Below, one piece after another: positions 39,964 to 56,496 of a DNA stretch of 62,924 bases (positions are counted from its first letter, which is position 1; each line of letters opens with the position of its first letter). The notes below the pieces were generated by a model that was not told the origin of the DNA, did no database searches, and was given only the letters and a program-made list of their open reading frames with translations. The stretch is taken from assembly GCA_030603385.1 (NCBI GenBank), contig JAUVXW010000026.1:1-62924 (forward strand), read 5' to 3'. The DNA is from Promethearchaeota archaeon (GTDB lineage Archaea > Asgardarchaeota > Lokiarchaeia > Sigyniarchaeales > SOKP01). The translations under genes were made by a program, and so were the position numbers.

Positions 39964-40078
39964 AGTTAAAAAAGAGTGATAAAACCAAAAATTTAGGAGG
40001 AAGGGGGCTAAAGTAGGGGATATGGATATATTCGAACTCTAAACACGGGGAATATAGGTTTATAACTCTTTTTTAACT
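39964..40078 (-). ncRNA. Candidate ~115-nt hairpin sRNA with ~22-bp closing stem and C-rich interior
   Basis: Inverted repeat 39964-39986 / 40057-40078; promoter motif at 40101-40115 placed about 23 nt upstream on the minus strand. Confidence 0.45.
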
Positions 40079-40100
40079 TGAATCTTATTAGTGATGAGGT

Positions 40101-40115
40101 TTTATAAAGAAAAAT
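40101..40115 (-). promoter_or_regulatory. Cluster promoter motif ATTTTTCTTTATAAA with no ORF downstream
   Basis: Points into the 39964-40078 hairpin. Confidence 0.55.
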
Positions 40116-51619: not shown

Positions 51620-54163
51620 TTATCTTTTTCCAATAATTTTTTTACATAAATTTATTCCCAAACCTGTTTTCTGATTTAGCGTATAGGGGTTTTCCTTTTT
51701 AACTTGAGATGCGGTATGGTTTCCGGCTTTGTAAAGGACCCTTGCTCGTACTCGCGCAACGTTATCTAAACGTAATACTAAGTCAAATAATTCCTCACGA
51801 ATCCCATAATGTATCCGTATCCGAAGCGTTTCTGACATTTCGGCAACCTTTTCTAACCTGTTACGAATATCAAACCCGCTTGAACTTAGGTTGTTTGCAA
51901 TTATCCCAATAAAGGTAATAATTCTCTCTAAACTATCTCGTACAGAAAAAAGATCACCTGTCATTATGTGATATCTTTCTAAGATATGTTCAATCGGCTC
52001 CTCATCTGTCCATTCAAGAATAGGCTCTAACATCTTATAGTCACGTACTCGAAATTCCGATTTTAACACTTCATAGGCTTCCTTAATTAAATCCCGAAAA
52101 GAGGTTATATTTGTATTCTCTAATTTATATCGAATGAGTACACCTGAAGAAGGATATAGATAGAGCCTAATTATTAGTTTTCCAAACTGGGAGCATTGTA
52201 TTGAGCCGTTATTATTCTTTAATATTAACCCTTTTTCAAACAAGTAATTTAGGATATATTGGTTCTTAATACTTTTTGGAATAATATCTTCAACATATTT
52301 TTGGATATTTACATCAGGAAATTTGATTAAATACAAAAGGAACATGGTAATATGGTCGCAAAATTCAAAGGCAAACTCGTTCTCAACTGCAAAATTATCG
52401 GATATACCATTTTGAAATCCGCAAGAACATTTAATTCCAGTATCAATATCGAATTGACATGAATAGACTCCAAAAGTAGTCTTAACATAGCCCGAAAGGT
52501 TTGAGTTACTACATTTTGTTATTTTAATCTGAGGTTTTTTACTTCTAAGTGTTTGTACTTTTTTCGGATCGGCATGAAGCTTAAGAATATTGACAGGAGA
52601 TATCTCTTTAATCATTAATAACTGCTCAATTGGGATTTGTTGGTCTTTCATCTTATGAGTAATTGTATACCAAAAGTACGTTTTTTCAAAGAAATTCTTG
52701 AGTTTATCCATTGTAATTTCTTGCTCTTCAAATACCCGAAGTAGTACTTGTTCTTTTAAAATATTAATTTTGTTTAATCCAGAAGTGAGATCATTGTATT
52801 TAGCCATGAGTGGACTATTCATCTGGAGTGATTTAAAGTAGTGATCCTCAACCCACATCTTCTCTTCTATGTTCTTTACTAACATAATCCCATAGCCGAC
52901 TGAGTCCAATCCCGGTCTACCCGCCCTCCCTAAGATTTGAAAAACTTCGTTTGATGAGAATGGCTTGAAATAGGAAAATCCATCGCCATTCTCATAGTAT
53001 CCTGAAAAGTTTTTTATATTAAATCCGGATGTGGTATACTTTTTAAAGTCTCGTAAAATAACAACACGGGCAGGTGTGTTGATTCCTGCTGAAAGTGTAG
53101 TCGTACAACATATAACTCTAATAAGCTTACTACGGAAATTATCCTCTATTAATTTTCTTTCGCGTGAAAGGAGGCCAGCATGATGAAACGCGACTCCATG
53201 GGAAAATATCTTACTCAATTCAAGGTTTCCTCCCTTAATCGATGCGATACGCTTAGAGAGCGCTTTTAACACTTTTAACTCAGATTCTTCTAAAAATTTC
53301 TTTACTATTTCCTTAAGATTTTGAGCAGACTGTTGTGCCGTCTTACGCTTATTTAGAAAGATAAGCACTTGTCCTTTATCGTTAAGGGTAGTCTTTACGA
53401 TATGTTTGATAGTAGAGTCTTTATTTTGTGTGGTGTGAATTTTATAATGAAGTGGTACAGGTCTTTCCTCAGATATCACCAAGGTAGTATGGTTCCCAAG
53501 TGATGTGAGCCATGCATTAAAGAACTCTGGATTCGCAATTGTGGCACTTAACCCAATTATTTGAGGGTGGTGAAAGAATTCATTCAATCGTACAATGAGA
53601 GATTCCAAACGAGGTCCTCTGTCTGATTCTCCGATGATATGGACCTCATCAATAATGATTGTAGAAAACTCAGAAATCCACTCCTTATCATAGAAGTTCC
53701 TTATGATCGAATCCATTTTTTCATAGGTAGTAACGATAATGTCAGCTTTTTCAAGTTTAGAATCGTCTATGTTATAATCTCCAATAGATATTTCTACTTT
53801 TACACCATATTTTCCATAGGCTTTTTTGAAGTGGAAGAATTTCTCAGTAGCTAATGCTTTAAAGGGCACTAAATATACAGATTTGCCGAACTTCTGAAAC
53901 ACATTATTTACCGCGCATAATTCACCAATGAGAGTTTTCCCACTACCAGAGGGGGCACATACTAAAAACGATTTGCGAAAAAATAGTCCTTTCCGTATGG
54001 CTTCTTTTTGAATTTCGCGTAGTTCAAATATCTTGTTTTCAAATAATACCCGAAGAATGCGCTTATCTGGAATATATTTATAAATTTCAGTTTCTTCTAA
54101 AGTCTCCTCTTTTGTACCTTTCCCAGTAAAATCGATTAAACTCATATCTATGGGTATAGACAT
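51620..54163 (-). CDS. hel308: Hel308/Ski2-like DExH helicase with inserted SWIM zinc finger (true start possibly 54145)
   Basis: APSGSGKT, DEVH, GLSAT, FHHAGL, TLSAGINTPA and QILGRAGRPG motifs; CSC...CDH insert; C-terminal RVRARVLY HhH. Confidence 0.85.
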   Translation of the reverse strand: MSIPIDMSLIDFTGKGTKEETLEETEIYKYIPDKRILRVLFENKIFELREIQKEAIRKGLFFRKSFLVCAPSGSGKTLIGELCAVNNVFQKFGKSVYLVPFKALATEKFFHFKKAYGKYGVKVEISIGDYNIDDSKLEKADIIVTTYEKMDSIIRNFYDKEWISEFSTIIIDEVHIIGESDRGPRLESLIVRLNEFFHHPQIIGLSATIANPEFFNAWLTSLGNHTTLVISEERPVPLHYKIHTTQNKDSTIKHIVKTTLNDKGQVLIFLNKRKTAQQSAQNLKEIVKKFLEESELKVLKALSKRIASIKGGNLELSKIFSHGVAFHHAGLLSRERKLIEDNFRSKLIRVICCTTTLSAGINTPARVVILRDFKKYTTSGFNIKNFSGYYENGDGFSYFKPFSSNEVFQILGRAGRPGLDSVGYGIMLVKNIEEKMWVEDHYFKSLQMNSPLMAKYNDLTSGLNKINILKEQVLLRVFEEQEITMDKLKNFFEKTYFWYTITHKMKDQQIPIEQLLMIKEISPVNILKLHADPKKVQTLRSKKPQIKITKCSNSNLSGYVKTTFGVYSCQFDIDTGIKCSCGFQNGISDNFAVENEFAFEFCDHITMFLLYLIKFPDVNIQKYVEDIIPKSIKNQYILNYLFEKGLILKNNNGSIQCSQFGKLIIRLYLYPSSGVLIRYKLENTNITSFRDLIKEAYEVLKSEFRVRDYKMLEPILEWTDEEPIEHILERYHIMTGDLFSVRDSLERIITFIGIIANNLSSSGFDIRNRLEKVAEMSETLRIRIHYGIREELFDLVLRLDNVARVRARVLYKAGNHTASQVKKENPYTLNQKTGLGINLCKKIIGKR

Positions 54164-54172
54164 TTTAAAATA

Positions 54173-54187
54173 ATATAAAGGAAAAAG
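54173..54187 (-). promoter_or_regulatory. Cluster promoter variant CTTTTTCCTTTATAT
   Basis: Only 10 nt from ATG 54163 but 28 nt from ATG 54145, which favours the second Met as a leaderless start. Confidence 0.55.
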
Positions 54188-54236
54188 TCAAATAAAATTC
54201 TTTATTTTGAGTTGTATTTGAAATTAAGGTAAAAAG

Positions 54237-54350
54237 GTGCCCCGTGCCAACCGACGCAAAATCGCGTCTAAAAATCAAAAGGGTAAGATTATAGAGTGTA
54301 ATGAATTACACTACCAAAAGACAAAAATCCAGGGTGTAAGCATGGGGCAT
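54237..54350 (+). ncRNA. Candidate multi-stem structured RNA (~114 nt)
   Basis: Closing stem TGCCCCGTGC (54238-47) / GCATGGGGCA (54340-49) with a G-U pair; internal hairpins GACGC/GCGTC and AGTGTAA/TTACACT; locally GC-rich; T-rich downstream. Confidence 0.55.
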
Positions 54351-54433
54351 AGTTTAATTTTACTTTGTTAAATTAAGACAAAAAATTCCTGTCTTCTAGT
54401 TATGAATAAGACATTAAACAATTTAAATTTCAC

Positions 54434-54449
54434 ATTTTTTCTTTATAAA
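54434..54449 (+). promoter_or_regulatory. Cluster promoter motif ATTTTTTCTTTATAAA (leaderless, heads the 54.5-62.2 kb operon)
   Basis: 29 nt before ATG 54478. Confidence 0.7.
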
Positions 54450-54468
54450 CGATCATTTTTAATAATAT

Positions 54469-56496
54469 TTGATAGTTATGACGGTTCTAGAAAATGAGAT
54501 CAGTAGGAAGAAAAACACATTAGGATCATATTATGAAGAAGCAAAAAAAGCTATAGCAGCACAAAATATCGAGCAGGCAATTGATTTAACCGAAAGAGGA
54601 CGCATACAAGCCGAACTGGAAAATGATTATGAATGGGTTCAGAGATTTAACTCGTTTAATTCGGCAATTAAAAAAAACCCATTACTAAGTACTACTATAG
54701 TGAAAGAGGATATAACAAAAATAAAAGGTGTTGGACCCTCTGTAGCACAAAAATTGCGAGAGCATGGATTTGATACGATTGAAACGCTTGTAAGATCGAC
54801 TATACCTCAATTATCAAGTATAAAAGGAATTGGACCAGTAACAGCCCATAAAATAGTAGAAGGAGCTATATCGCTCACATCCCATAAAAAATTAAACGAT
54901 TTTCCTCAACCAGATGATAAATCAGAAGAAACTCCTGTTCATGAAGAAATTGAAGAATACAATCAAGAAGATTATAATAAAATTATAAAAGAAATGAGAC
55001 CACAAAAATGGTTTTCTGATAAATATAAACGACTTAAAACCGGAGTCTGGTACAATCCACAGAAACAAAATTCCGTCCAAAAATCTAAAATGGCATCTAA
55101 GGAATCTGGAAATTTCCCCCAAATTAATAAGAAAACTAGCCAACATATTACCCCTACTATACATGAAGAATTTGTTGATTTTGAGGATGTAGAAGATGTT
55201 GAAGATAAAGAAGAGTTTACCAAAATACCAGATGTTGCGCTAAGTTCTCCTAAGTTAACATTCATAGAAGAGATACCATTAGTAGTCAAACAAAAAGATA
55301 TTCAGCCATTACAGAAACTAAAAACTATTCAAGATGAGAAAATAGATCATTCTGAAAGACAAACAATTGAAAATCAGGTTGTGCAAATCTTCCAAAAATA
55401 TGACTATAATATTATTAAACAAACTCCACTTTTGAAAGATATTTTTACCCATGCCGATGTGGTTGCGGTAAAAAAAGCTGATTTTAACGATGTATTAGAT
55501 TTCGTTATAATTATTCCATTAAAGCTAAATAGCCTTAAAGGAGAATTACAAGTCTCAAGTGAAACGATTAAGTATGTTCCTAACCATCAACAATTTAAAG
55601 AAAATGGTTCAGCGTTTAAAATGCTACTTGATTCATATTTTGATACTATACAAGAAAGCCATAAGACCATTCATCATGATCTCATAAATAAAGGTAATTT
55701 CTATTCTTACATAAAACGCCATTTTGGGATAAATATCACAATTAAAAAAACGTTGACACGTAAGAACTTATTTTTTACAGAAGGTAATATGCAATTAAAA
55801 GTGCTTATAGAACCAGTATTATTGTGTCAAAATGATGTCGGATTTTTAGAAAAAGACATTCCGTTTGCATATCTCAGCGATATAAACCTTCATATCATCA
55901 AAGAGAATAATCTTTCTGATTTTGTACATTTCATAGAGCAGAAATATATCTTATTAGAAACACATCGTAAACAAAATCATTCATTAATATCCTATAATGA
56001 ATCATACGACCAATTTCTAAAACGTTCTACAATTCTTTCCATCCCATTTATAGGATTTGGCGTTGTACTTCTCTTTCTGATATTATTTCAATCATTTGAA
56101 ACAATGAAATTTCTTATTAATATTGGATATGCACTTCTTGGAGTTTTCTTTATATCAATACCATTCTTCTATATGAAAGTGTTGAAACCGAGATTAGAGA
56201 TCCAAGCTGAATTCTTCAATCCTTATTGCCAAAAAGAATCTCAACTAGATGAGACGAGTTTAGTATTAATTAATGAAAAGTTTTCTCCTGAGATGATGTC
56301 GCAATTTGGGTATGAATGCTTAGGAAAACATCATCAGTCTAAAGTAATTATGCAAATTGAACAGGATCAGATTAAAGAAAGTATTGATCAAAATAGATTA
56401 TTGACTAAGGTTAAAAATGGCGGATTTTTTGAAAAAGAGATTCCAGAGAAAAATAAAGATTTCATAAACAGATATGGATCATTTTTAGAGGATTAA
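54469..56496 (+). CDS. Membrane-anchored HhH DNA-binding protein with degenerate PD-(D/E)xK-like domain (likely start 54478)
   Basis: IKGVGPSVAQKL..IKGIGPVTAHKI; disordered linker; IENQV..ADVVAVK..IIPLK; two TM helices near the C-terminus. Confidence 0.72.
   Translation: MIVMTVLENEISRKKNTLGSYYEEAKKAIAAQNIEQAIDLTERGRIQAELENDYEWVQRFNSFNSAIKKNPLLSTTIVKEDITKIKGVGPSVAQKLREHGFDTIETLVRSTIPQLSSIKGIGPVTAHKIVEGAISLTSHKKLNDFPQPDDKSEETPVHEEIEEYNQEDYNKIIKEMRPQKWFSDKYKRLKTGVWYNPQKQNSVQKSKMASKESGNFPQINKKTSQHITPTIHEEFVDFEDVEDVEDKEEFTKIPDVALSSPKLTFIEEIPLVVKQKDIQPLQKLKTIQDEKIDHSERQTIENQVVQIFQKYDYNIIKQTPLLKDIFTHADVVAVKKADFNDVLDFVIIIPLKLNSLKGELQVSSETIKYVPNHQQFKENGSAFKMLLDSYFDTIQESHKTIHHDLINKGNFYSYIKRHFGINITIKKTLTRKNLFFTEGNMQLKVLIEPVLLCQNDVGFLEKDIPFAYLSDINLHIIKENNLSDFVHFIEQKYILLETHRKQNHSLISYNESYDQFLKRSTILSIPFIGFGVVLLFLILFQSFETMKFLINIGYALLGVFFISIPFFYMKVLKPRLEIQAEFFNPYCQKESQLDETSLVLINEKFSPEMMSQFGYECLGKHHQSKVIMQIEQDQIKESIDQNRLLTKVKNGGFFEKEIPEKNKDFINRYGSFLED

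Follow-up and report, generated by a model that had tools for sequence, protein, structure and literature searches.

Asgard archaea are the closest known relatives of eukaryotes; apart from rRNA, tRNA, SECIS elements and guide RNAs, very few of their non-coding RNAs have to our knowledge been described. The element analysed in this work lies in a stretch of 62,924 nucleotides from one such archaeon (the window), and it can be set beside several described systems. By analogy, it would resemble the sibling sRNAs Qrr1–5 of Vibrio (Hfq/Sm-like) in its several paralogous genes of about 100–130 nt per genome, its shared single-stranded core with divergence outside it, and the U-run after its terminal helix, but the Qrr RNAs are linear series of hairpins, bacterial and chaperoned, whereas the present RNA is a closed three-way junction and archaeal. 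The Y RNAs (RF00019, and the bacterial YrlA) share with it a length of about 100 nt, a long stem closing the ends, several paralogues and a U-tail; in contrast to them, the RNA described here has no Rfam match and no Ro60, and its conserved element sits in the junction, not in the stem. Riboswitches built on a three-way junction (purine, TPP) also have covarying helices around invariant junctions and several occurrences per genome, but our RNA has T-runs after its closing stem, a neighbour with its own promoter, and many copies that are not upstream of a co-oriented gene. Finally, orphan ncRNAs such as raiA, OLE, ROOL and HEARO were likewise discovered by comparative genomics, have no known function and are lineage-restricted, although the present RNA is much smaller, archaeal and multi-copy, and its stems are rewritten from copy to copy.

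Our favoured reading, held with about even confidence, is that positions 54236–54350 of the window form a stand-alone gene encoding a structured small RNA of about 112–120 nt, one paralogue of an undescribed multi-copy family. The family is new: it is absent from Rfam 15, and no description of it was found in the searchable papers on Lokiarchaeial and Asgard ncRNAs. At E ≤ 10, a search of window positions 53900–54800 against Rfam 15 gave just two weak matches, both inside the neighbouring helicase gene hel308, and none that overlapped the RNA; six canonical copies of the family gave nothing at E ≤ 5.

Fold and layout of the RNA

The RNA forms an island of 37–42% G+C, against 18–27% in the surrounding spacer. 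It is bordered on one side by the start of a Ski2/Hel308-like helicase gene (51620–54163, minus strand) and on the other by a gene for a 675-aa helix-hairpin-helix (HhH) membrane protein (ATG at 54478), both genes being assigned by Pfam. Folded on its own, the island has a minimum free energy of -37.9 kcal/mol (z = -4.87) and is more stable than all 200 of its dinucleotide shuffles, which bears out the original prediction of a GC-rich multibranch structure between hel308 and the membrane gene. In the + strand fold of 54236–54350, a closing stem (P1) and two hairpins (P2 and P3) meet in a three-way junction with two long, purine-rich junction strands. The features of the locus are as follows:

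54231–54236, + strand: purine leader AAAAAG (family consensus AAA(A/G)GG), directly 5' of P1
54237–54251, + strand: 5' strand of P1, GUGCCCCGUGC, a 2-nt bulge and AC; from the fold and the covariance-model match, with every P1 pair covarying
54253–54268, + strand: P2 hairpin, GACGC-AAAAUC-GCGUC; from the fold and the model match
54269–54294, + strand: junction strand J2/3, a derived 'subtype B', UAAAAAUCAAAAGGGUAAGAUUAUAG, without the canonical GGAGGAGGGCGAAAUC; from alignments
54295–54312, + strand: P3 hairpin, AGUGUAA-UGAA-UUACACU; from the fold and the model match
54313–54335, + strand: junction strand J3/1, ACCAAAAGACAAAAAUCCAGGGU, the near-invariant family core; from the alignment of 100 copies
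54336–54350, + strand: 3' strand of P1, GU, a 2-nt bulge and GCAUGGGGCAU; from the fold, the model match and covariation
54353–54366, + strand: T-rich trailer (TTT, TTTT, TTT), likely the termination zone of a + transcript; from the T profile of the family
54375–54395, + strand: spacer hairpin AAGACA-AAAAAUUCC-UGUCUU, containing the box AAAATTCYTGYC; specific to this locus and outside the RNA family
54434–54480, + strand: promoter of the HhH gene, ATTTTTTCTTTATAAA at 54434–54449 with its TATA at 54442–54449, and the ATG at 54478; conserved at orthologous loci

Most of what had been predicted of the fold survived the comparison. The closing stem of 10–11 bp joins G54237/U54238–C54247 to G54340–A54349/U54350 with one internal G·U pair (G54244·U54343), and is extended by the pairs A54250–U54337 and C54251–G54336; the hairpins predicted at 54253–54268 and 54295–54312 are present both in the fold and in the covariance-model match. 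The hairpin AATC..GATT, in contrast, appears in the single-sequence fold only, and has no counterpart in the family alignments. As for the extent, predicted as 54237–54400, the RNA proper stops near 54349–54352 and does not reach 54400. In the leader, the three A positions are A in 80–90% of 99 flanks and the following GG is G in 75–85%; this sequence may contain the start of a + strand transcript or, should the RNA be made from the - strand, correspond to a T-run on that strand. A putative TATA-like element, CTTTATTTTG, can be read at 54200–54209, about 27 nt upstream.

The three helices P1, P2 and P3 are preserved through compensatory change. Over 50 copies, each of them covaries: 94.9% of the pair cells are standard pairs and 23 of the 29 pairs are changed on both sides, values reached by none of 500 column shuffles, while slid 3' partners are only 21–40% paired. 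Among paralogues and orthologues, P2 also takes the covarying forms GACCU/AGGUC and GAUGC/GCAUC, as P3 does GAGCGUG/CACGCUC and GUGUAG/CUACAC in other genera, whereas two small helices that RNAalifold places inside J3/1 show no covariation in the same 50 copies. The predicted structure also stands up in the orthologous intergenic regions, since among the 14 copies at orthologous loci all 11 P1 pairs are doubly changed and 95.2% of the cells are paired (P1 being, for example, GUGCCCCGUGC/GCAUGGGGCAU, CACUCCCGCCCCAU/AUAGGGUGGGAGUG or CUUGCACCCAUUCUGC/GCAGACGGGUGCAAG).

Distribution of the family and variation of its junctions

A BLAST search of the relatives with a 141-nt element gave full-length matches of 72–98% identity and many partial ones which, once extended, all proved to be full-length copies of one architecture. 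Family members are 115–135 nt long and consist of a P1 of 10–16 bp, a 5-bp P2 hairpin, a J2/3 that is canonically A-rich and then AUAGGGGGAGGAGGGCGAAAUCAG, a P3 hairpin of 7–8 bp, and the J3/1 strand given above. Copies were counted with a covariance model of the family (R1); the window copy matches it over model positions 1–129 with 126.9 bits (E ~1e-35), with P1, P2, P3 and the J3/1 core all matched. By this model, the genome of the window (G000) has three copies, namely that of the window, C3:395-524 and a decayed one; the genus has 1–18 copies per genome in 49 of 54 genomes, and the Lokiarchaeial taxonomic family to which it belongs (12 genera) has matches in 119 of 126 genomes. In the sister families of the class, a match was found in one of 24 genomes, on a 1.8-kb contig. 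As far as searched, the RNA is restricted to one family of Lokiarchaeia-type Asgard archaea. The sole match outside that family (G047:C1000:1300-1750, locus L148) is in an 85%-complete bin, and may be a binning error or a transfer.

The most conserved part of the RNA is single-stranded. About 95 of 100 copies share one identical J3/1 core, AAAGACAAAAAUCCAG, among them copies with a broken P1, and the junction strand CCAAAAGACAAAAAUCCAG is nearly invariant across the family. In the decayed third copy of our genome (C42:24612-24733, - strand, locus L030), P3 is deleted and the 3' strand of P1 is replaced, and the J3/1 core differs by one base. Copy number is highest in one genome of the genus, G077, with 18 copies that include two tandem pairs 288 nt apart (loci L153, L156, L157 and L159). 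There, a pair of copies also flanks a 2.1-kb segment with a Schlafen/AlbA_2 gene, and in genome G024 two copies enclose a SIR2-TPR gene; variable, defence-like neighbourhoods are therefore the setting of some copies. Elsewhere in the window, upstream of radA (39964–40115), there is a long hairpin with a G-rich interior that, by eye and by BLAST, is no member of the family.

J2/3 is where the window copy departs from the others. The canonical strand is G-rich, GGGGGAGGAGGGCGAAAUCAG, whereas the window copy has AAAGGGUAAGAUUAUAG, with a 7-nt deletion and without GGAGG. This variant is confined, at the window locus, to G000, G019, G002 and G073, and more distant orthologues at the same locus keep the canonical G-rich AGGAGGAGGGCGAAAUCAG. 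Judged from these alignments, the J2/3 of the window is a derived state and the window copy a variant member of the family. The change could signal loss of function, but it may instead be an alternative module and not decay, because another genome has some paralogues with comparable GGUAAAGAUUA junctions.

The variable 5' part of J2/3 has a possible partner downstream of the RNA. In 33 of 100 copies, a box located 15–45 nt after P1 is a perfect complement (at least 9 nt) of this part, against 4 of 100 in each of three controls. The complementarity is 9–14 nt long (examples are the loci L061:1501-1626 on the - strand, L070, L048, L012 and L084), and the box tracks the junction sequence, AAAACAAAAUAG going with CUAUUUUGUUUU, AAAAUACAAUAG with CUAUUGUAUUUU and AGAAAGAUU with AAUCUUUCU; about 16 copies match no trailer but their own. 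The box may serve to capture the RNA's own U-rich 3' tail, or may have a role in maturation. No conserved equivalent of it was found for the window copy, and a pairing of the window J2/3 with 54355–54366 (12 bp, 3 of them G·U) was rejected, as it is not kept in the nearest relatives. Between the trailer and J3/1, complementarity across the family showed no excess over the compositional expectation.

A different pairing had been proposed for the window, in which AAGACAAAAA, found both inside the RNA (54318) and outside it, would allow alternative structures and make the locus a switch. The repeat is real, although the copy outside begins one base away from the predicted position, at 54375, and the outside hairpin with TGTCTT is there too, AAGACAAAAAATTCC...TGTCTT forming AAGACA/UGUCUU at 54375–54395. 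The switch itself is unsupported: among 100 copies the same-sense outside 10-mer is present only in G000, G019 and G002, and the 5-bp outside hairpin is kept in these and in G073 only, that is, in four close species, and lies beyond the contig found in an RNA library (see below). A second, decayed copy in the trailer as the source of the repeated sequence was also rejected, the covariance model finding none there at E ≤ 10 with its filters off. The box AAAATTCYTGYC (54381–54393) is conserved upstream of the HhH gene in more distant orthologous loci, and may be part of the control region of that gene, or a regulator site.

Strand, transcripts and neighbouring genes

The RNA is probably transcribed from the + strand. 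A T-rich zone extends solely downstream on this strand, with 85, 82, 64 and 52% T from the fifth base after P1 and then 50–60% for 30 nt (the trailer T-runs of the window copy are short), and runs of four or more T inside the RNA are missing from the + strand in 86 of 97 copies, against 2–6 such runs per copy on the - strand, always including one of T5 or longer. Runs of at least five T are tolerated in sense ORFs of our genome at 2.8 per kb. No position-specific promoter motif, either TATA-like or a T-tract, was found on either side of the family copies. The original prediction had favoured the + strand on account of a G-U pair in the closing stem. This argument holds at the window locus, where the G54244·U54343 pair in the middle of P1 is kept in 6 sequences, but it does not decide the matter for the family as a whole; where the trailer helices end, G·U exceeds A·C by 21 to 7, a count that is composition-biased.

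Transcription from the - strand is unlikely, but it is the main alternative. The RNA would then show an invariant, single-stranded and U-rich CUGGAUUUUUGUCUUUUGGU like an Sm/LSm site and, in canonical copies, an exposed CCCUCCUCCCCCU tract, and the family would be one of sibling antisense regulators with an Sm-like chaperone. The AUUUUUG-like tract exists on the - strand alone, and the + strand offers no candidate Sm/LSm site other than its 3' U-run; P1 reads alike on both strands, and a fixed run of three or four T lies 3 nt after P1 on the - strand (CC(Y)UUU). Mismatches of the A·C type, which are G·U on the - strand, outnumber G·U by about 2:1 when counted by cell among intact copies; counted by pair type over 100 copies, however, the two are equal, and the mid-helix G·U kept at the window locus would become a conserved C·A mismatch. 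The - strand also has the lower free energy in 83 of 97 copies, by 2.7 kcal/mol on average, but this is expected from its G+U-rich composition. Against this reading, each copy would have inside the RNA a T-run of T5 or longer and 1–5 further runs of at least four T, that is, archaeal termination signals; the region upstream would be 50–60% A, unlike a promoter; T-richness extends solely downstream on the + strand; and the window copy has no CCUCC tract. Were the - strand reading true, the C-rich CCCUCCUCCCCCU tract could act as an anti-Shine-Dalgarno and pair with ribosome-binding sites of the GGAGG type, so that the siblings would regulate translation, and the window copy would lack this seed.

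The favoured reading of a stand-alone RNA gene is consistent with what is found in RNA libraries. In the metatranscriptome run X19, a 160-nt contig matches exactly positions 54236–54349, with 2 differences, and has at both its ends inverted copies of one 22–24-nt sequence, AGTCTATAGTGCCAGCAATTTC(GG). The 22-mer is absent from our genome and from searchable papers, and since 25–28 unmatched bases are found at the ends of other contigs too, its behaviour is that of a library adapter; this puts the end of the insert at the terminal P1 pair (U54238–A54349, or G54236). In the same run, hel308 (up to 54213) and the HhH gene (from 54471–54477) are on contigs of their own. Run X20 covers the downstream gene only, and runs X21 and X22 gave no contig on the stretch; positions 54214–54235 and 54350–54470 are uncovered, and such gaps were not counted as evidence. 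The X19 contigs point to a discrete RNA, its ends trimmed as far as the P1 helix, on the basis of one contig, strandless and from a related strain, whose depth of 9.6 is about that of the neighbouring mRNA. The HhH mRNA looks near-leaderless, its RNA contigs beginning 1–7 nt before the ATG.

A regulatory leader of the HhH gene would also place a structured RNA at this position. Homologues of the gene are present in 25 of the 54 genus genomes (E ≤ 1e-20; 26 loci), and at 14 of these 26 loci (13 genomes) the RNA lies 116–175 nt upstream on the same strand; since the HhH proteins at the RNA-linked loci are merely 30–84% identical, the adjacency is old. These distances on one strand, kept despite such divergence, together with invariant junctions and covarying helices of the kind typical of aptamers, are what a cis-acting leader or riboswitch would show. 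We nevertheless consider it very unlikely. The sequence ATTTTTTCTTTATAAA, a T-tract with a TATA, is conserved about 30 nt before the HhH ATG in nearly all 14 loci (a weaker variant is found in L175), which gives the gene a separate promoter located between the RNA and the ATG; the HhH contigs start at 54471–54477, beside the ATG, and none of the contigs listed connects them with the RNA. Own promoters had been predicted for both flanking genes, and it is the HhH part of this claim that is confirmed. Moreover, no riboswitch of Rfam was matched, and the paralogues adjoin other genes. In 50 paralogue neighbourhoods, the upstream gene is mostly divergent, while the gene downstream has the same orientation as the RNA in about 35 cases and faces it in about 14, and the neighbours are unrelated (radical SAM, SIR2-TPR, Schlafen/AlbA_2, a cation-efflux (CDF) transporter, mTERF, LRR, Ras-like GTPases, methyltransferases), which makes an obligatory cis-regulatory role unlikely. 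No recurrent partner gene was found beside non-orthologous copies, beyond orthologous synteny and generic Asgard families. One of the copies, in genome G156, adjoins a gene for an mTERF-domain protein (L065:3-1277, + strand; Pfam E = 1e-26), of a family typical of eukaryotic organelles.

Taken together, the covariation across the family, the conservation at orthologous loci, the separate promoter of the downstream gene and the discrete RNA contig support the original prediction of an independent ncRNA.

Other identities and a possible role

Could the repeat act at the level of DNA, as a miniature transposable element, a recombination site or an element bound by protein? Copy numbers of 1–18, copies at contig ends and in tandem or duplicated pairs, G·U and A·C at about equal frequency, and symmetric flanks (A-run, P1 ... 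P1, T-run) would all suit such an element. We regard it as highly improbable, however: the copies are stably syntenic across species, no transposase or integrase is nearby in the flanks examined, a discrete contig is present in an RNA library, and compensated stems around an invariant asymmetric interior are the opposite of what terminal inverted repeats would show if a transposase had to recognise them. The least probable alternative is a small self-cleaving ribozyme or a tRNA-like processing substrate with discrete ends produced by cleavage, which would fit a multi-copy three-way junction with invariant junction nucleotides and an RNA contig ending exactly at the P1 base on both sides, but seven copies gave no Rfam ribozyme match (E ≤ 5–10), the hammerhead core motifs are absent on reading the sequence, a single self-cleavage site would not yield two helix-flush ends, and the base of P1, likewise as read, is without staggered bulge-helix-bulge geometry.

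Several known classes were also considered as identities for the RNA. That it is not a tRNA, as had been predicted, is confirmed by ARAGORN, which finds no tRNA gene in the whole window, and by the sequence, which has no T-loop and no 7-bp acceptor geometry. In the 3.9 Mb of our genome, ARAGORN finds only 13 tRNA genes; the majority of its tRNA genes are probably interrupted or atypical, a common state in Asgard archaea. A Y RNA in a Ro60 RNP was rejected, as the 94%-complete genome has no TROVE protein (PF05731) while control genomes were matched, and so was a box C/D or H/ACA sRNA, which would need RUGAUGA and CUGA boxes, or an ACA tail with a pseudouridylation pocket and a K-turn: none of these boxes was read in the family consensus, and Rfam gave no snoRNA match over the RNA. 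Antisense targets of the J3/1 core, searched for in our genome at a complementarity of at least 16 of 19, were limited to the RNA copies themselves and one 17/19 site on C31.

We propose that the RNA is transcribed on the + strand from its own promoter, with a start in the conserved A-run, and that the transcript terminates within the T-rich trailer, its ends being trimmed afterwards as far as the stable P1 helix. The mature RNA would act in trans, its helices being a scaffold that shows the invariant, purine-rich junction strands to one conserved partner. That a single molecular partner should be expected follows from the J3/1 core, which is stricter than most proteins of these genomes; this partner would most likely be a protein, in an RNP, because there is no complementary RNA target in our genome and no gene association of the type expected for a ligand. 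The canonical J2/3 would add a GGAGG-rich segment which, in about one third of the copies, may pair with the RNA's own U-rich 3' trailer; in the window copy this G-rich segment would have been lost and all else kept. More specifically, though this is doubtful, the family could provide the RNA subunit of a lineage-specific Asgard RNP, or a new ribozyme or aptamer fold, with the invariant 20-nt A-rich J3/1 as its surface and the pairing of the trailer with J2/3 controlling stability or maturation. In that case, compared with an ENE, which binds the 3' end, the arrangement would be inverse, with an A-rich junction capturing the RNA's own U-rich tail.

What would such a family mean for these archaea? 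The window copy is stably linked to a gene neighbourhood that resembles those of DNA repair or DNA transfer, and, being without the G-rich module, it is a natural variant for functional comparison. Knowing the partner would show whether Asgard archaea have here a new RNP or an additional level of regulation.
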